In this document: positions 2,458-43,771 of the stretch, piece by piece
Position numbering within the stretch: the stretch's first letter is position 1
Layout of the letters: each line of letters opens with the position of its first letter
Source of the DNA: Endozoicomonas sp. G2_1
GTDB taxonomy: Bacteria; Pseudomonadota; Gammaproteobacteria; Enterobacterales; Alteromonadaceae
Assembly (NCBI RefSeq): GCF_017744155.1
Contig: NZ_JAGHQT010000003.1
Location: 1 to 64,000, forward strand
DNA: 64,000 nucleotides
Direction: 5' to 3'
Translations under genes and position numbers: made by a program
The notes under the pieces: generated by a model
The model's database searches: none
Told to the model about the DNA's origin: nothing
Seen by the model: only the letters and a program-made list of their open reading frames with translations

Positions 2458-4151
2458 TGACTGTACGTAAATACGTAGGAATAAGTGTATTAGCCTCAGT
2501 GCTAAGCGCTTGTGGTGGGGGCTCTTCAAGTCCAACGCCAACACCAACTCCGGCACCAACTCCGGCACCAACTCCGGCACCAACTCCGGCACCAACTCCG
2601 GCACCAACTCCGACACCGAGTACGGTAACCGTGTCTGGCGTCGTTAGTTATGACTTTGTTCCACACAACAGTTCAGTAGGCTTAAACTATAACGCGATTG
2701 AATCTAGAACATCTAAGGGTGTTACTGTTCAATTGCTCGACGCCAATCAAGCGGTTTTGGCAACATCAGAAACCAATGCGCAAGGTCAATATTCATTTGA
2801 TGTAAGTGCAAATACTAACGTTAGAGTGCGTATTGTCGCTGAATTAGCTGGCTTCGGCGAAGGTTGGCAAGCCCGTATTATTGATAATACCAGTAGCGAT
2901 GCGGTTTATGTTATTGATGGTGGGTTAGTCTCTAGCGGCACCAGTAACTCTCAGCGCAATATTCACGCGCCTTCAGGTTGGGGTGGCAGCTCATATACTA
3001 GTGCTCGAGTTGCTGCACCTTTAGCTATGCTTGATACTGTATATTCCGCGATGCAACTTGTCCGCTCTGTCGATGCATCAGCAAGCTTTGCTGAACTGAA
3101 TATTAACTGGAGTATTAATAACCGTCCGGTAGCTGGTAGTGATTTATCTACGGGTAACATTGGCACTTCTTTCTTTAGGCGAAGTAATAATCGAAACGAC
3201 TTATTCATTCTAGGTGCAGAAGGTACTGATACGGATGAATATGATCGCCACGTCATTGCCCATGAGTGGGGTCATTATTTTGAAGCTAATTTTTCTCGCT
3301 CTGATTCTACGGGGGGTCCTCACTCTATAGGTGATGTATTAGATATGAGGCTGGCATTCGGTGAAGGTTGGGGCAATGGCCTTGCGGGTATTATTCACCA
3401 AGATCCCGTCTATCACGATAGCCTGGGTGCTCGTCAAGCAAGCGGTTTTAACTTTGATGTAGATAGAAACAATAATCCAGCGGATAACCCTGGCTGGTAT
3501 AGTGAAGGTTCTGTGCAAGCGATTGTTTATGATCTTTTCGACACTGAAGAAGAAGCTGGTATTGATACTGTTGCACTTGGCTTTGGACCCATTTACCAAG
3601 TCATGACTAACGAGCAGAAAGATACGGAGTTAGTGACGAGTATTTTTAGTTTTGTTAGTGCATTAAAGGCTAATAATCCACAGAGTGCAGATGCTATAGA
3701 TACTTTGGTCTCGGGACAAAATATCGTCAGTAATACCATTGATGCTAGAGGTTCAACAGAGACTAATAATGCCGGTAATGCCAATTTGTTACCTATTTAT
3801 ACTGAAGTGAGTGCTAACGGTAACCCTGTGAATGTTTGTTTGACTGACGCACTAGGCACTAGAAATCGCTCTGGTAATCGACGTTTTCTTACCCTGAATA
3901 TTTCAAGCGCGGGTAATTATCAATTTAGCGCTGTGAGAAGTCCTTCAGGTTCAAATAACAGTGATCCTGATATCTCGATATTACAACAAGGCAATACCAT
4001 TAGAAACTTTGAAGGTACCGCAGCCAATACTGAAGTTGGCAGTGTTAACTTATCTGCGGGCAATTATGTCATTGTCTTGAGTGACTTTAATTTTGTCGGC
4101 AATCGCAGTCCACGCGATAGCGTAAGTTGTTTTAATGTTACTGTGCAATAA
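2458..4151 (+). CDS. Secreted zinc metalloprotease lipoprotein (HExxH) with Pro/Thr/Ala-rich linker; start likely at 2458 (ORF opens at 2424)
   Basis: Signal peptide with lipobox LSAC; (PTPA)n linker; HEWGHY zinc-binding motif; RBS aaagga before ATG at 2458. Confidence 0.6.
2532..2618. repeat. 12-bp tandem repeat (ccaactccggca x ~6, degenerate ends) encoding (PTPA)n linker
   Basis: Direct read of the sequence; perfect units at 2544-2603. Confidence 0.9.
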
Positions 4152-20313: not shown

Positions 20314-21543
20314 ATGTGTAATAAACACTATAACTTGATCGAAAATGAAGGCAAGGTGCCAATTAAGGCGTGGACTAAAGGTGTGCCATTTGAGCAACAA
20401 GCGCAAGATCAGCTAAATAACATTGCCAGTATGTCATTGGTGCATTCACATATTGCGGTAATGCCTGATGTTCACTTGGGAAAAGGTGCGACCATTGGCA
20501 GTGTAATTCCGTCGGTTGATGCCGTTATTCCAGCAGCCGTTGGTGTCGATATTGGTTGCGGTATGGTGGCGACGAAAACTACGTTAACGGCAAGCCAATT
20601 ACCGGATAATTTAGCGGGTATTCGTCACGCTTTTGAAGCGGCTGTGCCGCACGGACGCACAGGTGGAAAACGCGGAGCGCGCGATCGCGGCGCTTGGCAT
20701 AATATTCCAGAGGTAGTTGCTGGCGAGTGGAAAAAACTTGAAGCTCGCTTTGAAAGAATTTGTCAGAAACACCCAGCCATCAGCAAGAGTAACCACGTTA
20801 AACACTTGGGCACTATGGGAACAGGTAATCACTTTTTGGAGCTTTGTTTAGACGAAAACGACGCGGTTTGGATTATGCTGCACTCAGGCAGCCGCGGTGT
20901 TGGCAACCGTATTGGTACTTATTTTATTGAGTTAGCCAAAAAAGAAATGCAGCGTCATCAAATTAATTTGCCAGACGTTGATCTTGCTTACCTCGAAGAG
21001 GGCAGTGAGTACTTTGACGACTATGTTGAAGCGGTTGAATGGGCGCAAGATTTTGCGGCAAAAAATCGTGAAATCATGATGTTTAACGCAATCGCAGCGT
21101 TGAGAAAGCAAATACCAATTGAGTTTTCAACGGCAGAATTGGCAGTTAATTGTCACCATAATTATATTTCACGCGAGCGCCACTTTGGCAAAGATTGCTT
21201 TGTGACCCGTAAAGGAGCGGTGCGCGCAGAAAAAGGTGAAATGGGTATTATTCCAGGTAGTATGGGTGCTCGTTCGTTTATTGTTCGAGGCTTGGGAAAC
21301 CCTGATAGCTTTAACAGTTGTAGCCATGGTGCCGGTCGAGTGATGTCGAGAACCAAGGCGAAAAAGGTTTACACTATTGATGATCAAATTGCCGCAACCG
21401 AGGGCGTTGAGTGTCGTAAAGACGCTGCGGTAATCGACGAAATTCCTCATGCTTACAAGGATATTGACCAAGTTATGGCGGCGCAAAAAGACTTGGTTGA
21501 AGTGGTTTATACCTTAAAGCAAATTGTTTGTGTTAAAGGGTAA
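20314..21543 (+). CDS. rtcB: RNA-splicing ligase RtcB (3'-phosphate/5'-OH RNA ligase)
   Basis: 409 aa; conserved RtcB metal-binding Cys/His pattern (VMPDVHLGKG, GCGM, GTGNHF, HSGSRGVGN, HNY, CSHGAGR). Confidence 0.9.
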   Translation: MCNKHYNLIENEGKVPIKAWTKGVPFEQQAQDQLNNIASMSLVHSHIAVMPDVHLGKGATIGSVIPSVDAVIPAAVGVDIGCGMVATKTTLTASQLPDNLAGIRHAFEAAVPHGRTGGKRGARDRGAWHNIPEVVAGEWKKLEARFERICQKHPAISKSNHVKHLGTMGTGNHFLELCLDENDAVWIMLHSGSRGVGNRIGTYFIELAKKEMQRHQINLPDVDLAYLEEGSEYFDDYVEAVEWAQDFAAKNREIMMFNAIAALRKQIPIEFSTAELAVNCHHNYISRERHFGKDCFVTRKGAVRAEKGEMGIIPGSMGARSFIVRGLGNPDSFNSCSHGAGRVMSRTKAKKVYTIDDQIAATEGVECRKDAAVIDEIPHAYKDIDQVMAAQKDLVEVVYTLKQIVCVKG

Positions 21544-31846: not shown

Positions 31847-32473
31847 CTATTGACTTAACACGAACTTTTCACCTTTAAATATTTTTACTGGATTACCTCG
31901 TTGCAATTGCCAATGTTGTTGCCAGCGCGCTTGTTCTTGTTGACTCATTTTTTGCTGCTGAGCCATTTGCAGTTTTTGAAACAGCAACGCTTTTGCTAAA
32001 CGCTTGTTGGCGTGTTGGCTGCGTTCACTTTCAACGCGCACTGAAACTCCTGAACTAGTGTGAGTGGCTCGCACAGCCGAGTCTGTTGTGTTGACATGTT
32101 GCCCGCCAGCACCAGATGATCGACAAGTTTGGTAAACAATCTCGCGATCAAATGTCATTTCGTCTACTTGGTATACTTGGCCGCTAAAAAACCAGTTTTT
32201 GCGTTTGTGTTGTGGGCGGTATTTACTTTGGCAAACCCAAAGCATTGCTCCTTGCCACGTTTGTGCAAACGCTAAAGCTGTTGCTTTTTGATTGCTTTCT
32301 ATCTGCAGTAAGGCCGACTTAAAACCTAACTTGTTTTCACCCTGACTCGCGTCAATTACCGTGCAATTTAGATCGCTCGTTTTACATTGCTTTTCAATGG
32401 CTTTAACGGCGAGTGCAACCGCTTGGCAGCACTCAACTGGCCCTTGGCCGGCGGAAAATTGAAGTAAAATCAT
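31847..32473 (-). CDS. prfH: Peptide chain release factor homolog PrfH
   Basis: GGQ motif [17 protein letters not shown]; N-terminus [16 protein letters not shown] like E. coli PrfH; 4-bp overlap with upstream rtcB2. Confidence 0.8.
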
Positions 32474-33657
32474 TTGCTACAACTCCCGTTAGTTTTAAAT
32501 GTGAGTACCGGGCGCAACCTCGCGATAATCTCGATTAAACCTGCCGCTGCCATATCTAAAATAATACTTTCACATTTTTTGTAGGCTTGCGGCGCCTCGT
32601 CGTATAACAATTCTTTGTTGCCACAAACGACTCGGCTACCCAATGCTGTTCGGTATAAGTCTTCGCGTTTGTACTTGTGACTTAATCGGCTTTGGCAGTC
32701 GCCGCGCTTCCACTTTCGGCCCGCACCATGAGCAAGAGAACACAAGTTGTGGTTTAGCTCCTGCTGCTGGTTTAATAGCGGTTTCACCAAATAGCTGTAA
32801 TCACCGCGTGAACCCGGAATCACAACATAACCAGCGTCGCTAGGCGTCGCCCCTTTGCGGTGAAGCCAGCCTTTAACACCATCGATTGTTTTGGGTGAAA
32901 CGAGGTTGTGGTTAACATCAAGTACGCAATCACCTTGTGCTTTTATCGCTGCTAAAAAGCGCTTGGCTATAAGTGAACGGTTAAGCTCAGCCCAGCGCAC
33001 CGCATGGTTGTGCTCAGCAATATACTGATTAAATGGCTCACTATTTGTCGCCAAACCATCATGGTTAAATTCACTAATGTGCTTAACCAAAATCGACTGC
33101 CCTAAACCGCGAGATCCCGAGTGCACTAAAAGCTGCAACTGCTTCTTGTTTATGCCCAGTTGATCTAATTGGCTTTGGTCGTAAACTTGGTCAATCGCCT
33201 GAAACTCTGCAAAGTGGTTACCACCACCTATAGTGCCAAGCGCATGATCATAATTGCTGTTAGTAATATTTTTCTCGCGTTTGCCTTGAGCAATGTCATC
33301 AGCCCAGTTGTCGTCAAGTGGCTGTTCAATCGTTTTGAATTGTTTAGCCATTTTGTCTAGATTGACTTTGGCAACTTTGCTCGATGTTTGCCACAACGCC
33401 ATGCCACAACCAATGTCATTACCGACTAAGGCCGGATAAATTTTACTGCGCGTGAAAAATGCCGCACCAATCGGATAACCTCGGCCCGGATGCAAATCAG
33501 GCATACCCGCGACGCGTTCCATACCGGTTAATTCGGCTGTTTTAATTAATTGTTGTATTGCTAGCCCTTCAATCCACGTATTTTTTGAGGCAATAAGGCT
33601 AACTTTGTCAGTAATTTGTTGGACGGATTTGTCCATAACACCAATTCCTTTGTTCAT
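32470..33657 (-). CDS. rtcB2: RtcB-family RNA ligase paralog (RtcB2) paired with PrfH
   Basis: 395 aa with RtcB metal-site motifs (HPGRGYP, GCGM, GGGNHF, HSGSRG, HNH, AHGAGR). Confidence 0.8.
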
Positions 33658-34039
33658 TTGAAAATTTGGTTTTTTAAAACGAATACGGTTTGGCAGATCT
33701 TTTTAGCGTTGAACAAAAACCATAGGCAAACAAACAGGCTCTAGCGACGAAGTGCTAAAGTGAGTTGCTTTAGTTCAGCTTAAAAAGAATTACAGAATGT
33801 TGGCGTAGCTTGTTGCTAGCTAAAAAGATCTGCAAAGGGTAATAATGTATTTTTCATGTTTTTTACTCCTCTACAGTTAGTTGAAAAATGATAGTTGCTC
33901 ACTAAATAAGCGAGCGCATAATAATCAGTTTAATTTGTGAAAGCAAACTTAAAATTAATAAATTGCTAAAATTTCCTATATTTCGACTCATTTTCACCGC
34001 AAAAAAAGTGAACCATATTGGCATTCATTGCGGTGTCTG

Positions 34040-34681
34040 TTACATACACAGATTATTCTGAATTTCTTTTGAGACCGAAAACACTCGCTCTTTCGGCGTC
34101 AGTAATTTTGTTAAATCACCAGCTTCGACAAATTTTCTTTGCTCGGCAACAAAGGGTGAAATATCTTCAATGCGAAAAATGCCATCACCTTTAAACGGCG
34201 CTAAATAGTTGTTTCTCAAGCCTAGCTGAATTGCCTTGCGGTCGAGCTTTTCACCATAGGGGTTATGATCGGGATCCCACTGAAGGCGGACATCAGTAGT
34301 GGCTATTTTTTCTTTCCACTCTTGTTGTGCTAAGCCAAATACGTTAGTTGACGGAAAAGCATTTTGTAGTAAATATTCGAAATATTCAGGTTTGAGAAAT
34401 ATGGCTAATGTGGTCTCTTGACCTTCTTTGGTGCCCCAGCCTGATCGATACATCATCCAGAGAAAGTTGGGTTTAATCCAGCTCATTCTCGAATAACTGA
34501 AGTCACCGCCAAAGTACTGTTGTTTTGCTGCAAAGTTGCCAATACTAGGGCGATAAGCTTGGTAAACTATTACGTAATCTTGGCAACTTTGAGCCATGAT
34601 ATGTTTGCCACTATCCGGCCAAAATGCTTGCTGTTGGTAGTATGGCTCAACCTCAAGCCACGACTCTTGATCAATTTTCAA
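34040..34681 (-). CDS. DUF4291-like protein
   Basis: Family recalled from memory; co-oriented downstream of kptA and NADAR. Confidence 0.35.
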   Translation of the reverse strand: MKIDQESWLEVEPYYQQQAFWPDSGKHIMAQSCQDYVIVYQAYRPSIGNFAAKQQYFGGDFSYSRMSWIKPNFLWMMYRSGWGTKEGQETTLAIFLKPEYFEYLLQNAFPSTNVFGLAQQEWKEKIATTDVRLQWDPDHNPYGEKLDRKAIQLGLRNNYLAPFKGDGIFRIEDISPFVAEQRKFVEAGDLTKLLTPKERVFSVSKEIQNNLCM

Positions 34682-34713
34682 TGTATTATTCCTTTGTTGT
34701 GTTTCTGTTTTGG

Positions 34714-35280
34714 TTAGCTAATGTGCCAGTGAATAAATTCAGTTGGTACATTGTCAACGAGCCAAACATTGTTTGCTGAGCGATAAAAGATAAAACCTTG
34801 CTCATGCATTTTTTTGCTATCGATTTCGAGCACTTTAAGTTTTCCATATCGACTGCCAACCGACGCCGCCACCGTTTTTGATTCGGTAAGGTGAACATGG
34901 TGTCTGTTTCCTTTACTGAGTCCTTGTTCCTGAATACTTGCGCAGAAGCGTTCAGCGGTTCCGTGTAACAGTTTCTCAGGTGGTATAAGTGGTGTTAATG
35001 CCAGATCAACATCGATAGAGTGACCTTGGTTCGCTCTGATTTTTGTTCTGTTTGAGTTTATTGCAAAACGCTGTTTGTCATTCGTTTCAGCGACTAAATC
35101 AACAAGTTCAGCTGTCAGTGGATGTTCAGTAGTTTTATCGACAAGCTCATCGATTGAGGCCCAGCCACAGCTGTCTAGCTTTAAACCAATAGCATCGGGT
35201 TTGTGTCGTAAAACAAAGCTCAAATATTTGGATATTGCGGTGAGCTGCTTTTCTGTGATGCCTACTATTGGGTTAGTCAT
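34714..35280 (-). CDS. kptA: RNA 2'-phosphotransferase KptA/Tpt1
   Basis: LSFVLRHKPDAIGLKLDSCGWASIDELV … HGT … RHHVHL motifs. Confidence 0.8.
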   Translation of the reverse strand: MTNPIVGITEKQLTAISKYLSFVLRHKPDAIGLKLDSCGWASIDELVDKTTEHPLTAELVDLVAETNDKQRFAINSNRTKIRANQGHSIDVDLALTPLIPPEKLLHGTAERFCASIQEQGLSKGNRHHVHLTESKTVAASVGSRYGKLKVLEIDSKKMHEQGFIFYRSANNVWLVDNVPTEFIHWHIS

Positions 35281-35836
35281 TGATCAGTCGCTCTCTTACT
35301 TCCATTAAGGCATAGCCCAACAAATTCAAACCACGCCAGTGTTCAGGTTGCTCTATTTTCGGATTGTCTTGGGCCATGCCTATTCCCCATATCGAATCAA
35401 CAGGGCTCGCCTCAACGATTACTCTGTCATTGGTGTTAATAAGAAAATTGGCAAGCTCATTATGAGCCCTGAATTTAGCCAAATTGGCGTTTATCACAAT
35501 ATCAAACCTATGTTGTTGCCAAACTTGGTCATTGAAGTTGGCGACAGTTCTACCTATGGCTTTTGCTTCGCCGGGCGATTGGGCGGCAAGCACTTTGTTC
35601 GCTGATTTTTTATCATCGAATAACATGGCTTTAGCAAACATCATATAGTGCTCTGCAGTTTGAAAGTGGCAGTTATCGCTGGTAAAAGGAGCGTGATACC
35701 ACTGACTAAAACAGCTTTTGGTGACAACAGGTGCACTACTAGTCATTTTGCTTTGGTGCCCCCAGAAAAAAAGGTATTTAACCGCAACACCATTTGCAAG
35801 TGCTTGCAGCAATTCTTGATTATTTCTTATATTCAT
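35273..35836 (-). CDS. NADAR (YbiA-like, DUF1768) domain protein
   Basis: FFWGH…FSQWY…AEHYMMFAKA…WGIG…LG.ALMEVR pattern; 8-bp overlap with kptA. Confidence 0.7.
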   Translation of the reverse strand: MNIRNNQELLQALANGVAVKYLFFWGHQSKMTSSAPVVTKSCFSQWYHAPFTSDNCHFQTAEHYMMFAKAMLFDDKKSANKVLAAQSPGEAKAIGRTVANFNDQVWQQHRFDIVINANLAKFRAHNELANFLINTNDRVIVEASPVDSIWGIGMAQDNPKIEQPEHWRGLNLLGYALMEVRERLIND

Positions 35837-35872: not shown

Positions 35873-37468
35873 TTATATTTGTTCATTGATTAGCGCTCTA
35901 ATCTCAGCTAGTGTTGTTTCTTTTATCAATTTGCCATCTTGAAAAACAATGTCGAGTAGACCTTCTTTTTCTTCTTGCTCGCTTACGTTGTCGAACAAGG
36001 TGAGCTCACCGTTGACGTTATCGACCTTTAACAACCCTTTGGCTGATTTTTTCTTGGTGTCAGTTTTGGGATCTTTAAAAATAGCGACTCGTTCGCCATT
36101 TTTTACCACGCTAGTTGCTTTAACCGCTGAGCCATGAGTATCGCGAGTAACGTATTGATAGCTGTACGAACCTATGCCAAGTACAACTTTAGAGGCAAAA
36201 CCTTTGTCCATCAGTCTTTGTAGTATTTGGCGTTGGCGTTCTAGGGTGATAGCGTCACCGTAAATAGCACCAATGTGTTCGTCTAGCAATTTAAAGCCTT
36301 TGTCGGTTGTCGTACCGCCAAAAATGTCCCATAAACACTCTATCAACCCTTTTATTTCACATAGCATTAGTGGCTTGTTGCTTTGCTCATTGCTAGCGAA
36401 GTATTCGCCGCACCAACGGTAAGCTTCGTAGCCACTACTAACTGCGTCGAGCTGAGCTTGTTTTTGGTCTGTGAACAGTTCACTGTATTCGGATACTGGT
36501 GATAATTTATATCCGGTTAGTATTTTGACGGGATCGCCTGAATCAGGACGAATCACCAAAGTACCATCGCGAGTCAGTATTTCATTTTTAAGTTGTGGTA
36601 AATATTCGGTCACTAGGGTCCAAAAGTCCCAAGTATCAGAAACCACACTTAAAATGCCGGTTGGTGACTGCTCTCGCATCAAGTATTTAAAAAACTCAAT
36701 TTCACCTTCTAAAATCCATGAACAAGTCACTGAGTGCTCGGTGGCATCAACTGAACAGCCAACTAACTCTTGGTCAACATTAGCGCCATAGTATTTCTCA
36801 GCGAATAATACCGCGGGAATAGTGTCGGTACCGACTAGGCCAGAGGCTAAGTGCCCAAAACCACTCATCGCAGCTGCTTGCTTGCCAAACATCCCCCGAA
36901 AACTGAAGTCATGACCTTGAAAGGGGACAAATTCCATCGGTAATCCTGTTTTTTCAGCGAACTCTTTAAATACCTTGAAATAAGCGACAGAGGTGGTTGC
37001 GCTAGTTTGGATTGGCCAATTTTCACAACTTAAAACCGTTTCGATCATGTTGGTTAGCCACTGAAAACCCGTTTTGGTATTCACTACGGTAATTGGCGGT
37101 ACTGAATAAGGTACAAGAGTACCTTCAGGCAGTGCCTTAATTTTCAGTGGTAGATATCCCAGATCGTGTAAATCTTCTAAATACTTAACATTTACTGGGT
37201 AACCTAGCATGGCACTCATAATGCGTTTGTGCTCAGCAACGGCAATAGTTTTGTCACGACTAAAAAAGTCTGCCCACTCTTCTTGTAAATAACTTTTGAT
37301 GAAGTACTGCAAACCAACAAACGCCACTTTATCGTTATTTTCAACATTACTTAGCTTGCCGTTGCGTGAGGTAAAGTTAGCATAAACCTCGGTTACGTCA
37401 GGATGGTATGCACGACTGTGAAACTCTTTATAAACATCTTTTTGCATGCTTGCTGCGGTAATTGTCAT
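35873..37468 (-). CDS. nadV: Nicotinamide phosphoribosyltransferase NadV (NAMPT); start ATG at 37468 (track ORF opens at TTG 37489)
   Basis: NAMPT-like FQGHDFSFRGM, GTDT motifs; aaggagag RBS before ATG 37468. Confidence 0.75.
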   Translation of the reverse strand: MTITAASMQKDVYKEFHSRAYHPDVTEVYANFTSRNGKLSNVENNDKVAFVGLQYFIKSYLQEEWADFFSRDKTIAVAEHKRIMSAMLGYPVNVKYLEDLHDLGYLPLKIKALPEGTLVPYSVPPITVVNTKTGFQWLTNMIETVLSCENWPIQTSATTSVAYFKVFKEFAEKTGLPMEFVPFQGHDFSFRGMFGKQAAAMSGFGHLASGLVGTDTIPAVLFAEKYYGANVDQELVGCSVDATEHSVTCSWILEGEIEFFKYLMREQSPTGILSVVSDTWDFWTLVTEYLPQLKNEILTRDGTLVIRPDSGDPVKILTGYKLSPVSEYSELFTDQKQAQLDAVSSGYEAYRWCGEYFASNEQSNKPLMLCEIKGLIECLWDIFGGTTTDKGFKLLDEHIGAIYGDAITLERQRQILQRLMDKGFASKVVLGIGSYSYQYVTRDTHGSAVKATSVVKNGERVAIFKDPKTDTKKKSAKGLLKVDNVNGELTLFDNVSEQEEKEGLLDIVFQDGKLIKETTLAEIRALINEQI

Positions 37469-37478
37469 TTTGCTCTCC

Positions 37479-38327
37479 TTACCCTTCAATAATGTTAAGT
37501 GTTACTTTTTGAGTCGTTTGAAACTCGTTGGCTGCTCTAAATGAGTCGGTGGTATATATGTGGTCGATTAAGCCTTCAAATACTTCTAAACCTTGCGAAA
37601 AAATACCGTGGGTAACAAATAGTGATATTTCGTTTGCGCCTTGGGCCTTTAATACTTTGGCTAACTCAATAAAAGTTCTGCCACCGTCACAAATATCGTC
37701 GGCTATGATTAGGTTCTTGCCCGTAACGTTACCAATAATTTCTGTTTTGACGATAGCACCTGTACGCAAGTCTCTTAGTTTCTGCGCCTGTATAACTTCG
37801 CTGCCAAATTGTTCCGCAATTTTTAACGTTTTTTTACTTGCTCCCGCATCAGGTGCAATTAGCGTTAGTTCACCGCTGCGGAGCTTAGTCGTGAGCTCTT
37901 GATTTTTTTTAAGCAACTCTAGTTGAGGGATATTAGTTACTCGGTTTAACAGTGCTGGTGTTACATCGCTGTGAGCATCCCAAATTGTTACTTTGGCAAA
38001 ATTCAGGCTATTGATTATGTTTGCCATAACTGCAGCGCTTAATGCTTCACCCGTGACACAAACACGATCTTGTCGAGCATATGGAAAATAGGGCGCGATT
38101 AATTCAATAGGAACGCTGTCATTGAATAGTCTGTTTAGTGCATCAACGGCCATCATGAGTCGAACAATTTTGCTCGAGTTGGTTAAGCGTTCAATAATTT
38201 CTATTTTTTTGCAGTTCGCCAAATCTTCGAGAGCAAAGCGAATGTGCTCTTCACCACCTGAAAAACTAAAGCTCTCATAGTTAACAATTGTTTTTTTACC
38301 TGCAGAGTTGTGACTAAATATTTTCAT
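37479..38327 (-). CDS. prs: Ribose-phosphate pyrophosphokinase (PRPP synthetase), NadV-associated type
   Basis: PRPP-binding loop NLIIADDICDGGRT; upstream of nadV in same operon. Confidence 0.75.
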   Translation of the reverse strand: MKIFSHNSAGKKTIVNYESFSFSGGEEHIRFALEDLANCKKIEIIERLTNSSKIVRLMMAVDALNRLFNDSVPIELIAPYFPYARQDRVCVTGEALSAAVMANIINSLNFAKVTIWDAHSDVTPALLNRVTNIPQLELLKKNQELTTKLRSGELTLIAPDAGASKKTLKIAEQFGSEVIQAQKLRDLRTGAIVKTEIIGNVTGKNLIIADDICDGGRTFIELAKVLKAQGANEISLFVTHGIFSQGLEVFEGLIDHIYTTDSFRAANEFQTTQKVTLNIIEG

Positions 38328-38345
38328 GATGCTCTCTTTATTGTT

Positions 38346-38504
38346 TGTGTCCCTATGACATTATTTAATTTAGCAGGGTGATAATATTTATGCAATACAA
38401 ATTTGTGTCTTTATGACACTTTCCTGTTTATTGCCATTTTTAGTGGTGTTAACAAGCTGAGCAATTGCAATTTTTCGCATATTTCTATATTGTGTCTTAT
38501 AGAC
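38346..38504. promoter_or_regulatory. Three copies of inverted repeat GTGTC-N5-GACA(C/T) (38346-38361, 38404-38419, 38489-38504) in the prs-nadV / nrtR divergent region; candidate NrtR operators
   Basis: tgtgtccctatgacat, tgtgtctttatgacac, tgtgtcttatagacat read directly. Confidence 0.45.
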
Positions 38505-38522
38505 ATAATTGAGTTGAGCAGC

Positions 38523-39221
38523 ATGACTAAGCCATACAATATTAATGATTTCAAAAATCCACTATTCACTGTTGATAGTGTGTTATTCACTGTAAAAGAA
38601 GGGCGGCTTCAGGTGTTGATGGTAAGAAGGGCAAATGAACCTTTTATTCATCAATGGGGTTTGCCGGGAGGTTTTGTTGACGTTGATATAGACCAATCAA
38701 CAGATGAGACAGCATTGAGAAAACTCAAGGAAAAAACCAGTGTTGCACCACAGTATTTAGAGCAGTTACAAGCTTTTTCTAGCGCTTACAGAGACCCCAG
38801 AGGATTTAGCGTTACGTTGGTTTACTACGCACTAGTCGCTGAGCAAGAGGTTAGCTGTCACATTGATACTGTGGATGATGCAAAGTGGGTTGATCTTGAA
38901 GAATTAGATGACCTTGCCGTTGCTTTCGATCACCGTTTTATTATTGAGCAAGCACAACATCGTTTACAACAAAAAGCGCTGTATTCAATGGTGCCCGTTT
39001 ATTGTTTGCCTGAGCTATTTACTATTGCACAGCTCAAGTCTGTGATCGAAGTGATTATTGGCAAAGAGATTCAGCGCAAGAGCTTAATCCGCAGGATAGA
39101 TGCATCAGAAATGTTTGAAGCTCTTGATGAAAAAGTGAAATCAGGAGGTCGTTTAGCCCAGGTGTATAAAGTTAAGCCTGATGTTGATATTGCCCACTTT
39201 GAACGAAACTTGAGTATGTAG
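38523..39221 (+). CDS. nrtR: NrtR-type regulator (Nudix domain plus C-terminal winged helix); start probably 38523 (track ORF opens at 38403 inside operator repeat)
   Basis: Nudix box GLPGGFVDVDIDQSTDETALRKLKEKT; ~100-aa C-terminal domain; divergent to prs-nadV. Confidence 0.6.
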   Translation: MTKPYNINDFKNPLFTVDSVLFTVKEGRLQVLMVRRANEPFIHQWGLPGGFVDVDIDQSTDETALRKLKEKTSVAPQYLEQLQAFSSAYRDPRGFSVTLVYYALVAEQEVSCHIDTVDDAKWVDLEELDDLAVAFDHRFIIEQAQHRLQQKALYSMVPVYCLPELFTIAQLKSVIEVIIGKEIQRKSLIRRIDASEMFEALDEKVKSGGRLAQVYKVKPDVDIAHFERNLSM

Positions 39222-39231
39222 TGGCTAATTT

Positions 39232-39675
39232 ATGATTGTATATATTGATATGGATGATGTTTTGTGTGATTTCTCTGGGGCGTTTGATAGCGCACTTAGC
39301 GTTAATCCAGAGATCACTTATCCGCAATCTCAATATGGTTTTTACGCTAACTTAACACCTCTGACAGGGGCAATTGAAGCACTTATCGACTTACTGAGTT
39401 CTGAAAAATTCACCCCTTACATTCTTACAGCACCTTCAATATTAAACCCTTTATGCTATACCGAAAAACGTATTTGGGTAGAGAAGCACTTGGGTTTAGC
39501 GTTTGTTGAACGACTGATTATCAGCCCAGACAAAAGCCTACTTTGCGGCGATGTCTTAATTGATGACCGAACTCATGGTCATGGTCAGGATTGTTTTCAG
39601 GGCGAATTAATACAGTTTGGCTCAACTGAGTATCCTGACTGGGAGAGTGTTTTGAACTACCTCAAATCAAAATAA
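39232..39675 (+). CDS. HAD-family 5'(3')-deoxyribonucleotidase-like protein
   Basis: DMDDVLCDF (DxDxV) HAD motif I; small size. Confidence 0.55.
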   Translation: MIVYIDMDDVLCDFSGAFDSALSVNPEITYPQSQYGFYANLTPLTGAIEALIDLLSSEKFTPYILTAPSILNPLCYTEKRIWVEKHLGLAFVERLIISPDKSLLCGDVLIDDRTHGHGQDCFQGELIQFGSTEYPDWESVLNYLKSK

Positions 39676-39701: not shown

Positions 39702-42533
39702 CTAATTTATTGGGTTTCTCAGTGTGTGATCTATTTTTTCCCAAGTACCATTGTTGTATTTCATTTCAAAAAATGGCCAATAGTGATTGTCTACCTTTAA
39801 CGTTGTCACTGTTGGCGTGTTGTTGAAGCTTATGGTTTTTATCAACACTGACTCTTGATGTTTCTTGCCTTTAACCGCCTCGATAAAGTCTTGGGTGGTA
39901 GTTATTTCTTTACCATCTATTTCAACAATGCGTTGCATTGCATAAATGCCATAGCGAGTTGCCGGAGAGCCATAGGTATAGCTGGCAACATACACGCCTT
40001 CTGAACTAACATTACCTTGCAGTTGTGCGGCTCGATGAGGCGCGTGTAGGTATAAACCAGACCAATAAATGACTTGTTCAATATCGACGCCATGTAGGGC
40101 CGTTGTCTCAATATCAGCCTCTTTTATTTGCCCCTCGCTAAAATAAGTGACTTTAACGCTTGGCTGTTGGCTAAGTGACTCTACTTGTTTGAAGGTCGAC
40201 ACGGGGATGTCATTGATGGCAAGCAATAGGTCGCCTCGTTTTAAGTGGATAGCGCTTTTAGAGCTTGTCGAAACGTTGTAAATTGCCAAGAGCTTATTGG
40301 CATCTGTGCCCGGTTGAACAATCTTGTTAATCCACTGTTCACTTAGTCCCATTTGTACGGCATTAACCGGCGGAATCATGGTTAAGTTAATATCCAAAGA
40401 ATAGGTTGTTTTCTGGTTGGCAAAAGTATCAAGCAGCTCTGTTACGTACTGAGCTGACAAGCCAGAAATAGCGTTATTTTGCTCGTTACCTTCGGAATTA
40501 CTGGCGTCAAAGACAATCCATAAACCAGCAACTTCATTGGCGGTATTCACAAGCACCCCGTCTATAGCACTATTTGGGTTAACTAAAGAAGTACCTTTAA
40601 TGTTTTTGTCAATAAACTGTGGCACTTTGTAATTGTATAGCCAAAGTTCTTCGGTGTTATTAACAATGGTTTCTCTGTATTCAACAACGCCGTCGTAGTT
40701 GAGGCCAACTTGTAAAATAGGGTCACCTCGTCTCATTGCTTTATCACTGAAGGTGGCTTGCGAGACCTTGGCATTGGCTAAATCTGAAGGTGTATAGGAA
40801 ACTAAAGCAAGGTTGTGTAATGGGTGTATGTATTCGACTTTCCCATTGATTTCATAGCGATTGTTAAAGGTGATTTTGACATCGCCTAGCATGCTAAATA
40901 CTACGGTGCGAGCCACGACAACCCAGCCTTTTTCGATATCTACGATAACACCTGTGCCATAGTGATTTTTGTCACCATTACGCCCTTGGACTGAATATGG
41001 ACTAGAAAATGACACGTTAACCAAGGCATTTTCAATATTTTCGCTATCGACAGGAGTGAAGTTTGTCGTTGAACTTTCACTTGTTTGTGTCAGGCTCGCT
41101 TGGGCTTTAAATTTTTGACAAGGCCAGTAGCTTTGGTCTGCAGTTTTTTCGCAATAGCTGTGCTCAAACCATTGTCGATTTATTTCGACAAGGGCGTAGT
41201 TGGTCGTATTTGGTGTAGAAAAATCAAAGTAGCGCAAATTGACTTTACGCGTGCTTTTTATGTTTTTTAGTTGCTGGTTAAATTCTTCAACGGTATTCAC
41301 TTTAACGCCATTGAATTCAGTAATCACGCCGTGACTTGGTACCCCCGCTTTGCTAAATGAACTGCTGGATCTTGCAACGTAAACCCCTTGTATGGGTTTG
41401 TTAAAGTGACGCGCCTGTTGATATGACAAAGTGTGAAAAGTACTACCGTCAAATCGCACGATTGACTGTGGGCTGAGCGTTTGTAAATCATCAACTGCAA
41501 TATTGAACGAGTGTTGCTCATTTTGTCTGATCACAGTTACTTCAATGTTTTGTCCAACGTTAACGTTTAGGTTGTGTTCGAGTTGTGAAAAATTAATAAC
41601 ATTTTGCTGGTTTATACTCAGTAGAATATCACCCACTTTGAGTTTTTCGTCAGCGTTGCTCTGAGGGATGATATGCCTGACAACAAGTAAACCTTTCAAG
41701 TCAGGATATTGCTCTCGATAGCGTTGTTCGAGCTCAGACGTTAACCCCAAGCGAGTTAGTTCAGTATATGAGGTTGATTGAAAGGTAGTTTTTATGGTTC
41801 CACGAGGAATCGCTTGCTGGTTTTGTAATTGAACCAAGGCAATTTTTATTTGTTCTAGTGGTAAGTAAAACGCGGTTGCTGACTTAGAACGGCTGCCTGC
41901 ATTTAGAGCGACGGCTTCGCCTTTTATATTGATGACCGGAGAGCCAGATGAGCCACCGGTAGAAGATGTCGCCGCTTGGATGTAGAAGGTATTAAAGTCA
42001 TTGTATTTACCTTTGCCATAGTTCGGCGCATCGCGATCTAAACGCGAGATAGTCCCATCTAAAATAGATATTTTTTGGCCAGCGTCATTACCTATAATGC
42101 GAATTGCTTCACCCACTTCTGGGTCTGAGTCGCTCAGGGTAAATTGATGAGGAGTGAGGTGTTTAATTTGACTAGGGTCATACTTAAAGAAGCCAAAATC
42201 GTGAACGGGGTCGAAATAAAGTGGCGTTAAGTCAATTTCTTCGTTATTCACTAAAATCGCTTTGGCGGTGACTGGCCCCGGGTTAATCACATGCCTATTG
42301 GTTAAAATAATGCCGTTTTTAGCATCGACAATAAATCCGGTGGCATAGCTACTTCGATTCGACTTACCATCGAATGCTACAGGTATATCTGTTTGAATAC
42401 TAACGACACCAGAAGAGACTTTTTGAACCGTTTTATTCCAGTTTTCTGCGTCGTTGCTTTGGTTACACGAGGTTAAAAATAGTGTCGTTAATACACTGAT
42501 AACGTAAACCGCGTATTTTTGTAGCATTTGCAT
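39702..42533 (-). CDS. Large secreted trypsin-like serine protease (S1C/DegP-like) with multiple PDZ domains, lipoprotein signal
   Basis: Signal plus lipobox LTSCNQ; protease core GFIVD…ILTNRHV…GGSSGSPV; 943 aa. Confidence 0.6.
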   Translation of the reverse strand: MQMLQKYAVYVISVLTTLFLTSCNQSNDAENWNKTVQKVSSGVVSIQTDIPVAFDGKSNRSSYATGFIVDAKNGIILTNRHVINPGPVTAKAILVNNEEIDLTPLYFDPVHDFGFFKYDPSQIKHLTPHQFTLSDSDPEVGEAIRIIGNDAGQKISILDGTISRLDRDAPNYGKGKYNDFNTFYIQAATSSTGGSSGSPVINIKGEAVALNAGSRSKSATAFYLPLEQIKIALVQLQNQQAIPRGTIKTTFQSTSYTELTRLGLTSELEQRYREQYPDLKGLLVVRHIIPQSNADEKLKVGDILLSINQQNVINFSQLEHNLNVNVGQNIEVTVIRQNEQHSFNIAVDDLQTLSPQSIVRFDGSTFHTLSYQQARHFNKPIQGVYVARSSSSFSKAGVPSHGVITEFNGVKVNTVEEFNQQLKNIKSTRKVNLRYFDFSTPNTTNYALVEINRQWFEHSYCEKTADQSYWPCQKFKAQASLTQTSESSTTNFTPVDSENIENALVNVSFSSPYSVQGRNGDKNHYGTGVIVDIEKGWVVVARTVVFSMLGDVKITFNNRYEINGKVEYIHPLHNLALVSYTPSDLANAKVSQATFSDKAMRRGDPILQVGLNYDGVVEYRETIVNNTEELWLYNYKVPQFIDKNIKGTSLVNPNSAIDGVLVNTANEVAGLWIVFDASNSEGNEQNNAISGLSAQYVTELLDTFANQKTTYSLDINLTMIPPVNAVQMGLSEQWINKIVQPGTDANKLLAIYNVSTSSKSAIHLKRGDLLLAINDIPVSTFKQVESLSQQPSVKVTYFSEGQIKEADIETTALHGVDIEQVIYWSGLYLHAPHRAAQLQGNVSSEGVYVASYTYGSPATRYGIYAMQRIVEIDGKEITTTQDFIEAVKGKKHQESVLIKTISFNNTPTVTTLKVDNHYWPFFEMKYNNGTWEKIDHTLRNPIN

Positions 42534-42697: not shown

Positions 42698-43771
42698 CTA
42701 CTCAAATTTTTTGATACATTCATTCTTAGGTATCTTGCATTTATCGCATTCTCTGTTTTTATCGACAAATACTTTTCTTTTAATGCCTTGATTAGGTTGT
42801 TGGAAAGGCCAGTTTAGAGCTTCAATTTTACTTTTCCTGAAAGCTTTCCATTCTAAGGAAAAGTTTTCTTTAAAGTATACATATCTATGACACCACTCTA
42901 AAATTGTAATTGGAATACGTCTCCCATTTCTGTAGTGCGTTTCAGGAAAGTTCTCTAAATGGGGTAATAAACTTCGAATCCTATTTGGTGGAAAGTTAAA
43001 ATTATTTGGAGTATATAATGTTTTCATTGCTTTTATCGCGGCTTTACTATGTAACTTATCCTCAACGTTTTTTTTGAATTCCACTGATAAGCGGGCCTTA
43101 TGTAGCTCTCGTCTGATCAACTCTAGGTATTCGTTAAATGACCAGTAATAGCATGGCGTAACATAGTAATTGAAATCAAGATGACAATTATTAATTACTT
43201 TTTGTGTTGTTACCGGTTTATTCCAAATATCAAAACCGCACACATTACAAGTTCCAGTTACGATAGACTTTAATTTTTGATAATTATTTAGTTTGTTTGA
43301 ATCGCAGTGACATCCATGTTTAAACAGGCTGATATGATGCACTTCACAGACATCGTGATGGCACCAACTTAACTTAAACCAGGTAAATCCATCAGTGTTT
43401 ATTTGTTCTTTAAAGCAAATAGGGCAAAATTGGATTTCTAGATTAAGAAATGCCAATGTCTTCGGCATTTCTATAGTGATGTATTTATCAGTGTTATTAA
43501 ATATATTCGATGCTTTTTTTAGAAAAATATCGGGTGTATTGACTAGTTTAAAAAACTTTAGTATAGAATGTTCTTCGACTAATGTAAGTAGCTCTGTCAT
43601 ATCATACGTTTGAAAGTGCAGAAATGTACTTTCCGTTAAGCCAAAGTTGAATCTCCAGCAAAACTTTTTGTTTATTAACAACTCTACAATTATGCTTTTG
43701 TTGAGTTCATTTAATAGTAATGACTTTCGAAAGATAAAGCTTTGTAACAATTCACCTGGCTTAATCCACAT
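42698..43771 (-). CDS. Cys-rich hypothetical protein in AT-rich DNA
   Basis: CPICF…CHHDVCEVHH…CHC…C..C clusters; low GC. Confidence 0.3.
   Translation of the reverse strand: MWIKPGELLQSFIFRKSLLLNELNKSIIVELLINKKFCWRFNFGLTESTFLHFQTYDMTELLTLVEEHSILKFFKLVNTPDIFLKKASNIFNNTDKYITIEMPKTLAFLNLEIQFCPICFKEQINTDGFTWFKLSWCHHDVCEVHHISLFKHGCHCDSNKLNNYQKLKSIVTGTCNVCGFDIWNKPVTTQKVINNCHLDFNYYVTPCYYWSFNEYLELIRRELHKARLSVEFKKNVEDKLHSKAAIKAMKTLYTPNNFNFPPNRIRSLLPHLENFPETHYRNGRRIPITILEWCHRYVYFKENFSLEWKAFRKSKIEALNWPFQQPNQGIKRKVFVDKNRECDKCKIPKNECIKKFE

Follow-up and report, generated by a model that had tools for sequence, protein, structure and literature searches.

In the NrtR regulons described by Rodionov et al. 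in 2008 (PMC2330246), most regulator-binding motifs take the form of a 21-bp palindrome built around GT-N7-AC, and the positions of the sites imply repression. Shewanella oneidensis NrtR (SO1979, hereafter soNrtR) controls one operon only, prs-nadV, which has two tandem sites in front of it. In electrophoretic mobility shift assays, soNrtR shifts both sites and is released by ADP-ribose (ADPR), the most effective releasing ligand for both NrtR proteins tested in that study; pADPR, NaAD, NaADP, NADH, NADPH, and NADP at 100 µM also released soNrtR in vitro (PMC2330246). Structures of soNrtR have been determined in the apo form (3GZ5), with DNA (3GZ6), and with ADPR (3GZ8), and the residues that contact ADPR are Tyr10, Phe15, Arg41, Asn43, Lys76, and Arg98 (PMC4666351). 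Here, we describe a comparable locus in a 64,000-nucleotide stretch of DNA from Endozoicomonas sp. G2_1 (contig NZ_JAGHQT010000003.1, positions 1 to 64,000; "the window"), where three palindromes separate a prs-nadV operon from a divergent gene for an NrtR-type regulator. Very probably, the three palindromes are NrtR operators that repress both prs-nadV and nrtR itself, and the repression is most likely relieved by ADP-ribose.

The divergent prs/nrtR spacer (38328-38522, 195 bp) is bounded by the prs ATG codon at 38327 on the minus strand and by the first ATG codon of nrtR, at 38523 on the plus strand. A sequence-only reading of the window had proposed three near-identical 16-bp palindromes in this region. 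Three such palindromes, named O1, O2, and O3, were found at 38347, 38405, and 38492; the remainder of the 64 kb has none. The proposed length did not hold: the conserved core is 15 bp long and lies within a 21-bp palindrome. The pattern GTGTC-N5-GACAY has four strand-matches in the window, all confined to O1, O2, and O3, where 0.18 would be expected; in 100 shuffles of the window that preserved dinucleotides, the count never reached four. When one mismatch to GTGTC-N5-GACAC was allowed, the number of matches rose to six, against 0.89 expected. The extra matches, at 21411, 42482, and 49882, all fall within coding open reading frames (ORFs), score 7.5 bits or less, and are in line with chance in their number; the match at 42482 lies in signal-peptide codons of a 943-amino-acid Trypsin_2 protein, and was likewise judged to be due to chance.

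A 21-bp weight matrix was trained solely on sites of orthologous loci, with the window left out. It gave all three sites high scores (Table 1), while the next-best position in the window scored 7.5 bits and the maximum in shuffled windows averaged 7.8 bits. The symmetric consensus of 48 unique sites is wTTrTGTC-nyWrn-GACAyAAw. Although the search pattern did not include them, the central positions of these sites and those at ±8 to ±10 are nearly all A/T. Read as gtGTc-N5-gACac, the sites fit the NrtR-type GT-N7-AC core, so the comparison with the published motif that the sequence-only reading had called for (PMC2330246) came out in its favour. A perfect 8-bp palindrome of another sequence, TGTTAACA, occupies 38447-38454 in the interval from O2 to O3, and orthologous spacers do not keep it.

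Table 1. Coordinates of putative regulatory elements and genes at the prs-nadV/nrtR locus (positions in the window)
Feature	Coordinates	Strand	Description
Putative operator O1, prs-proximal	38344..38364 (core 38347-38361)		21-bp palindrome, core GTGTCCCTATGACAT; 25.7 bits; same place in 13 loci
Putative operator O2, prs-distal	38402..38422 (core 38405-38419)		Core GTGTCTTTATGACAC, perfect palindrome; 25.4 bits
Putative operator O3, nrtR-proximal	38489..38509 (core 38492-38506)		Core GTGTCTTATAGACAT; 24.2 bits
Predicted prs (adps) promoter	38367..38395	-	-35 TTGCAT 38395->38390, 17-nt spacer, extended -10 TGcTAAATT 38375->38367
Predicted nrtR promoter	38465..38493	+	-35 TTGCAA 38465-38470, 17-nt spacer, -10 TATTGT 38488-38493
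nrtR	38523..39221	+	232-aa protein; Nudix-like effector domain and NrtR winged-helix DNA-binding domain
NT5C-like 5'-nucleotidase gene	39232..39675	+	10 nt after nrtR; Pfam
prs	37479..38327	-	Prs-family domains (Pfam); resembles phage Adps, candidate ADP-ribose pyrophosphokinase; leading gene of the operon
nadV	35873..37489	-	Nampt family, Namat type; Pfam NAPRTase/NAMPT_N
NADAR gene	35273-35836	-	Pfam
KptA/Tpt1 RNA 2'-phosphotransferase gene	34714-35280	-	Pfam; 8-nt overlap with NADAR gene
DUF4291 gene	34040-34681	-	Pfam
RtcB RNA ligase gene	32470-33657	-	Gap of ~380 nt beyond DUF4291 gene

The conservation of the sites was followed in a sample of 16 related loci from genome collections, 13 of which contain prs-nadV. 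In some of these 13 loci, prs-nadV and nrtR diverge directly; in the others, a 2.3-kb insert parts them. The synteny and the motif are kept together in loci from Colwellia, Pseudoalteromonas, Shewanella, Grimontia, Marinicellulosiphila, and the Oceanospirillales. On the prs side, all 13 loci have two sites 55-58 bp apart (58 bp in the window), the first of them ~20 nt from the prs ATG. On the nrtR side, 15 loci have a site whose distance to the nrtR ATG is 29-38 nt, the loci with the 2.3-kb insert among them. O3 is the most position-conserved of the sites; one of its half-sites, GACAT, is always imperfect. In an alignment of the directly divergent spacers, the mean column identity is 50%, and the invariant columns cluster at the TGTC/GACA half-sites of O1 and O2 as well as in short blocks that resemble promoter elements. 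The sequence-only reading had named absence of the motif from orthologous intergenic regions as the observation that would speak against it; instead, the motif occupies the same positions there. A chance repeat, or a functionless remnant of a local duplication, would be in keeping with the similarity of the O1 and O3 flanks, which are 70% identical over 37 nt (direct-repeat family D1). Such an origin is refuted by the comparative data, since 13-15 independent loci keep both the position and the sequence of the sites, in a spacer that is otherwise ~50% identical or unalignable, and the shuffled windows argue in the same direction.

Several other arrangements were seen in the sample. The 2.3-kb insert between prs and nrtR is present in loci L003 (1884-3829), L004, L005, L008, L015, and L016, and partly in L001 (Colwellia, Pseudoalteromonas, and Shewanella). 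It encodes an SPFH/Band_7 protein of 335 amino acids and a 308-amino-acid protein with no Pfam match. The insert has a pair of NrtR-type sites of its own in front of it, with a spacing of 24-25 bp (in L004, for instance, at 3849 and 3874); its genes are candidate additional members of the regulon. Two Alteromonas-type loci, L012 (3850-3976) and L013 (1197-1323), have three NrtR-type sites before nrtR and a NADAR gene after it, and no prs-nadV within reach of nrtR. In the Enterobacillus tribolii relative (L014, 3785-3831), where NrtR is 54% identical, a variant motif, TTGTC-N5-GACAT, occurs twice, 23 bp apart; no prs or nadV homologue was found within the 4-kb flanks.

To relate the motif to the Shewanella type, we turned to Shewanella sp. 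W3-18-1, which has an NrtR with 96% identity to soNrtR. The spacer between nrtR and prs in this strain holds GTGTCTAAAGGACAC and ATGTCTTTAAGACAC, 86 bp apart. They are the top two matches in 6.7 kb (24.6 and 23.4 bits, respectively) of a matrix built without the W3-18-1 locus, and the window motif therefore appears to be the same recognition sequence as the validated Shewanella type. A weaker NrtR-like site, TTAGTGACGCTAAGACATAAT (L017, 2921-2941; 15.9 bits), is located upstream of nrtR in W3-18-1, exactly between the hexamers TTGACT and TAATAT. Its position suggests autoregulation in this strain too, which is absent from the 2008 regulon table.

We also considered that the palindromes may be bound by another transcription factor, or may form RNA or DNA hairpins, for example terminators. 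A terminator scan did report O2, on either strand, as a 5-bp stem with a T-rich tail behind it; we regard these matches as an artefact of the palindrome. The stems measure just 5 bp; the loop varies freely and the half-sites do not vary at all, and conservation is strictly one of sequence, with no compensatory changes. The sites are upstream of both genes and after none. Moreover, the motif co-occurs with nrtR across gammaproteobacterial families and is of the same type as the Shewanella NrtR sites, while phage Adps-Namat loci, which lack nrtR, also lack NrtR-type sites when searched with the matrix. Functions of either kind are, in view of these data, very improbable.

The product of the gene to the right of the spacer was correctly recognized in the sequence-only reading as an NrtR-like protein with Nudix and winged helix-turn-helix (wHTH) domains. 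Pfam detects NUDIX (PF00293, 7.4e-15, amino acids 20-138) and NrtR_WHD (PF21906, 1.4e-14, amino acids 159-216) in it, and the best match in the Protein Data Bank (PDB) is soNrtR (3GZ5/3GZ6), with E=1.6e-59 over the full length and 47% identity over 226 ungapped residues. The longest mechanically called nrtR ORF begins at 38403 with a TTG codon that belongs to the sequence TTGTGTC of O2; it had been taken for a spurious start overlapping one of the sites, and this proved right. The true start is ATG 38523, because the 232-amino-acid protein encoded from this codon is 100% identical over its full length to a deposited NCBI protein of Endozoicomonas sp. G2_1, and because close NrtR homologues are mostly 232 amino acids long too.

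All six residues with which soNrtR contacts ADPR (Y10, F15, R41, N43, K76, and R98) are identical in the window protein. Its Nudix box (...ALRKLKEKTSV) is degenerate when compared to the intact signature, GX5EX7REUXEEXGU: RKLKEK replaces REUXEE, and two of the three glutamates are lysines. A degenerate box is common to this protein and to the hydrolase-inactive soNrtR (RKLAEK), and the perturbed signature would imply ligand binding without hydrolysis.

The positions of the sites relative to conserved promoter-like blocks bear out the proposal of the sequence-only reading that prs-nadV is repressed and nrtR autoregulated, with two sites at the predicted prs promoter and one at the predicted nrtR promoter. 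Read on the prs strand, the order of elements is O2, 9 nt, the -35 element, 17 nt, the extended -10 element, 5 nt, O1, a Shine-Dalgarno sequence, and the ATG. Blocks of the form cTTGAyc-17/18 nt-TGcTAAATT are kept between O2 and O1 in the 13 prs-nadV loci. In this arrangement, O1, centred near +6, would cover the predicted prs transcription start near 38360 on the minus strand, and the centre of O2 would lie near -52, which is the UP-element position of the prs promoter. On the other side, the O3 core starts with the last two bases of the nrtR -10 hexamer, 31 nt before the ATG, and in relatives TTGAyr-17 nt-TAwTGT directly abuts O3 (for example, TAATGT|GTC). O3 would thus cover both the -10 element and the predicted start of nrtR, near 38500 on the plus strand. 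Taken together, the layout is that expected of classical promoter occlusion, with two operators acting on prs-nadV and one serving for nrtR autorepression.

The assignment of O3 can be questioned. The regulon table of 2008 (Table 1 in PMC2330246) gives no site before nrtR in Shewanella, and the half-site GACAT of O3 is imperfect throughout, as would be expected if O1 and O2 alone functioned, on prs-nadV, while O3 were decayed or incidental and nrtR were constitutive or otherwise regulated. We consider this improbable: the position of O3 is kept even when the 2.3-kb insert intervenes, the site scores 24.2 bits and abuts a conserved -35/17 nt/-10 element, and the 15.9-bit site of W3-18-1 is situated within the spacer of the nrtR promoter.

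Several observations weigh against the reading of the three sites as ADPR-responsive NrtR operators. A simple σ70 consensus scan with a threshold of 9/12 found no promoter in the spacer, and for this reason the promoters were placed by means of the conserved blocks; both match the consensus at 8/12 only. The O1-O2 spacing of 55-58 bp is a non-integral number of helical turns, and cooperative looping is therefore not implied. The top NCBIfam match of the regulator, NF050029 ("ADPR responsive transcriptional repressor"), reaches 208.7 bits, which is below the cut-off of 400; by Pfam, the protein is a member of the NrtR family, and it is not an equivalog of the NF050029 seed proteins. Identity to soNrtR is only 47%, so effector specificity could differ, and an NrtR relative, NdnR, responds to NAD (PMC4666351).

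The last three points lend some weight to the view that the sites are NrtR operators but respond to an effector other than free ADP-ribose, such as NAD, 2'-phospho-ADPR, or ADPR-PP, and the additional compounds that release soNrtR in vitro at 100 µM (PMC2330246) can be cited in the same sense. Such an effector is unlikely, given the six of six identical ADPR-contact residues and the superior effectiveness of ADPR with both NrtRs tested (PMC2330246), but it is the most plausible of the alternatives that we considered.

If the three sites are ADPR-responsive NrtR operators, the switch would work as follows. A dimer of NrtR would bind each 21-bp site (wTTrTGTC-N5-GACAyAAw). O1 and O2, which bracket the prs core promoter, would mediate repression of prs/adps and nadV/namat, and possibly of the NADAR, kptA, and DUF4291 genes, while O3, located over the promoter of nrtR (and the NT5C-like gene), would provide negative autoregulation. 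ADP-ribose released by NAD breakdown would bind to the presumably catalytically dead Nudix domain, NrtR would leave the DNA, and both promoters would fire. The induced enzymes would most likely rebuild NAD from nicotinamide, and are likely to do so directly from ADP-ribose via ADPR-PP, in a pathway resembling NARP1. The inducer would then also be a substrate, converted back to NAD.

The last step of this scheme depends on the identity of the prs-nadV products. That a second Prs paralogue should be regulated together with NadV was called unexpected by Rodionov et al. and left unexplained (PMC2330246). Phage "prs-nampt" operons have since been described as NARP1 (Osterman et al., bioRxiv 10.1101/2024.02.11.579819), in which Adps converts ADPR and ATP to ADPR-PP, and Namat joins ADPR-PP and nicotinamide to form NAD+. 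According to the same work, some bacteria carry NARP1 outside prophages, in an unknown role. Later work solved structures of the Namat of phage SPbetaL1 (9W5X/9W5W) and defined a Namat-specific clamp motif, GS-X-Phi-X-Phi-X-Phi-TRD, and a chromosomal Adps-Namat pair of Paenibacillus was shown to be active (Lan et al. 2026, PMC12774641). Namat also keeps the phosphoribosyl pyrophosphate (PRPP)-dependent synthesis of nicotinamide mononucleotide (NMN), and older NadV assays therefore cannot tell Namat from NadV function.

In the window, a Prs-like gene stands directly beside a Nampt-like gene in one operon, which is the operational criterion for NARP1 of Osterman et al. The NadV protein matches SPbetaL1 Namat (9W5X/9W5W) with 440 bits and 46% identity, against ~190 bits for the Nampt proteins of Xanthomonas (Xcc) and human. 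It has the adenine-clamp signature GSYSYQYVTRD at amino acids 440-450, aligned to GSFTYQYNTRD of SPbetaL1 Namat; in Shewanella W3-18-1, NadV is 54% identical to Namat and contains GSFTYQHVTRD. Another PDB entry, 9KE8, gave 371 bits with the window NadV; it is represented by no phage protein in our collection and was not used as evidence.

The Prs protein of the window scores 290.7 bits with phrog_619, compared to 246-248 bits for the Adps proteins of SPbetaL1 and FADO and 174-184 bits for cellular Prs, and it falls well short of all NCBIfam equivalog cut-offs for Prs. Its identity to Namat-adjacent Prs-like genes of Escherichia coli and Klebsiella phages is 45-50%. Three motifs are common to the window Prs and the SPbetaL1 and FADO Adps proteins and differ in cellular Prs: HSDVTpAL (cellular HAxQIQGFF), PDAGAxKK (cellular PDxGGVxRAR), and KxRxxxTGxI (cellular KRRPxxNVxEV). 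Thus, while the sequence-only reading was right about a prs-nadV operon as the target, the enzymes resemble an Adps-Namat (NARP1) pair rather than a plain PRPP synthetase and nicotinamide phosphoribosyltransferase, and its naming of them can be refined to a likely NARP1-like pair.

There are data that fit this refinement less well. The residue of NadV aligned to the adenine-stacking Arg40 of SPbetaL1 Namat is Asn, in a loop that is 3 amino acids longer; this selectivity-clamp loop has been called variable (PMC12774641). NadV also has an insertion of ~50 amino acids (amino acids ~320-372) relative to SPbetaL1 Namat and the 490-amino-acid NadV of Shewanella; phage Av-05 has a similarly long NadV/Namat homologue (571 amino acids). 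The window Prs is 33-37% identical to tested Adps proteins (33% for SPbetaL1) and 26-30% identical to cellular Prs. In a small unrooted neighbour-joining tree (bipartition bootstrap), cellular Prs proteins are split from the rest in 100 of 100 replicates; the root of this tree is not placeable, and the split is no proof of membership in an Adps clade.

AntiDefenseFinder flags NARP1 as abundant in Acinetobacter chromosomes, and Acinetobacter was listed in 2008 with #prs-nadV-nrtR (PMC2330246). Among the papers searched, none links NrtR to NARP1 functionally, including the only one in which both names occur. We consider the chances evenly balanced that the NrtR-controlled prs-nadV operons of Gammaproteobacteria, including those of the window, Shewanella, and Acinetobacter, are chromosomal NARP1 systems, in which the operators would form a substrate-induction switch with ADPR as both inducer and substrate. 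The KptA and NADAR activities encoded nearby might be among the NAD consumers of such a system.

The remaining genes of the locus are listed in Table 1. The prs stop codon (37479) overlaps the nadV ORF, whose TTG start is at 37489; the true start of nadV is likely ATG 37468. The NADAR, KptA/Tpt1, and DUF4291 genes follow in the same orientation, overlapping or separated by short gaps, and possibly form the distal part of the operon; Pseudoalteromonas denitrificans (L006) also has the order prs-nadV-NADAR-KptA. A terminator scan of the 33.4-40 kb region gave no definition of the operon ends. As a whole, the minus-strand genes at 32470-35836 make up a cluster of NAD/ADP-ribose and RNA-repair functions downstream of prs-nadV. 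On the other side, the NT5C-like gene adjoins nrtR also in L001, L003, L004, and L016, and is probably co-transcribed with nrtR in an autoregulated operon; NMN is one possible substrate of the encoded nucleotidase. Farther to the right, the minus strand encodes the Trypsin_2 protein mentioned above (39702-42533), which combines several PDZ domains with a lipoprotein-like signal peptide, and an adjoining gene (42698-43771) with a sub-threshold TniQ match (24.8 bits, cut-off 27). The G+C content of the window is 40.6%, and its NrtR, Prs, and NadV have their nearest relatives in Colwellia, Pseudoalteromonas, Shewanella, and Oleiphilus; the Endozoicomonas sp. G2_1 label of the source protein may deserve checking.

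The locus adds one more well-supported member to the collection of NrtR regulons, with the start codon of nrtR fixed, and exact predicted operator targets are now available in a marine gammaproteobacterium labelled Endozoicomonas. Here, an ADP-ribose-sensing repressor appears to sit on an operon with hallmarks of the ADP-ribose-consuming phage Adps-Namat pathway. If this pairing is true, chromosomal NARP1 would gain a housekeeping role and a regulator, and operons long annotated as "prs-nadV" salvage operons would need to be re-read. It would explain the puzzle of 2008, i.e., the shared regulation of NadV and a dedicated Prs paralogue, and would answer the question, posed in 2024-2026, of the role and control of chromosomal NARP1.

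The NrtR switch is of a well-described kind, and the window sites are very probably one more case of it. The soNrtR system and that of the window have in common the protein architecture, the degenerate Nudix box, the identical ADPR-contact residues, the half-sites (r)TGTC-N5-GACA(y) within a 21-bp palindrome, and a prs-nadV target with two sites before prs. They differ in gene order, which is divergent in the window (nrtR<>prs-nadV) and co-directional in Shewanella (nrtR-#prs-nadV), and in the placement of the prs sites, which are 55-58 bp apart and bracket the predicted promoter in loci of the window type, and 86 bp apart in W3-18-1. In addition, the window has a third, strong, putatively autoregulatory site, its NrtR is no closer to soNrtR than the identity given above, the prs-nadV operon appears to be extended by the NADAR, KptA, and DUF4291 genes, and the NT5C-like gene follows nrtR.

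With phage NARP1, the window shares the two-gene Prs-like/Nampt-like operon and the Adps motifs; unlike phage NARP1, its operon is chromosomal, non-phage, and under a predicted ADPR-sensing repressor. The enterobacterial NadR (TGTTTA-N6-TAAACA) and NiaR are also repressors of NAD synthesis or salvage genes with palindromic operators that overlap promoters, but they belong to unrelated protein families, recognize other motifs, which the window motif does not match, and respond to other effectors (NAD and niacin). The arabinose-responsive BtAraR, MsNrtR (GTTTTCGA-N7-TCGAAAAC), and Streptococcus NrtR have the same Nudix and wHTH fold and bind to a palindrome as dimers, and MsNrtR represses its own gene (PMC6800001), as we propose for the NrtR of the window. 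They differ from it in their operators and regulons (de novo nadABC genes, sugar utilisation), and BtAraR also in its effector.

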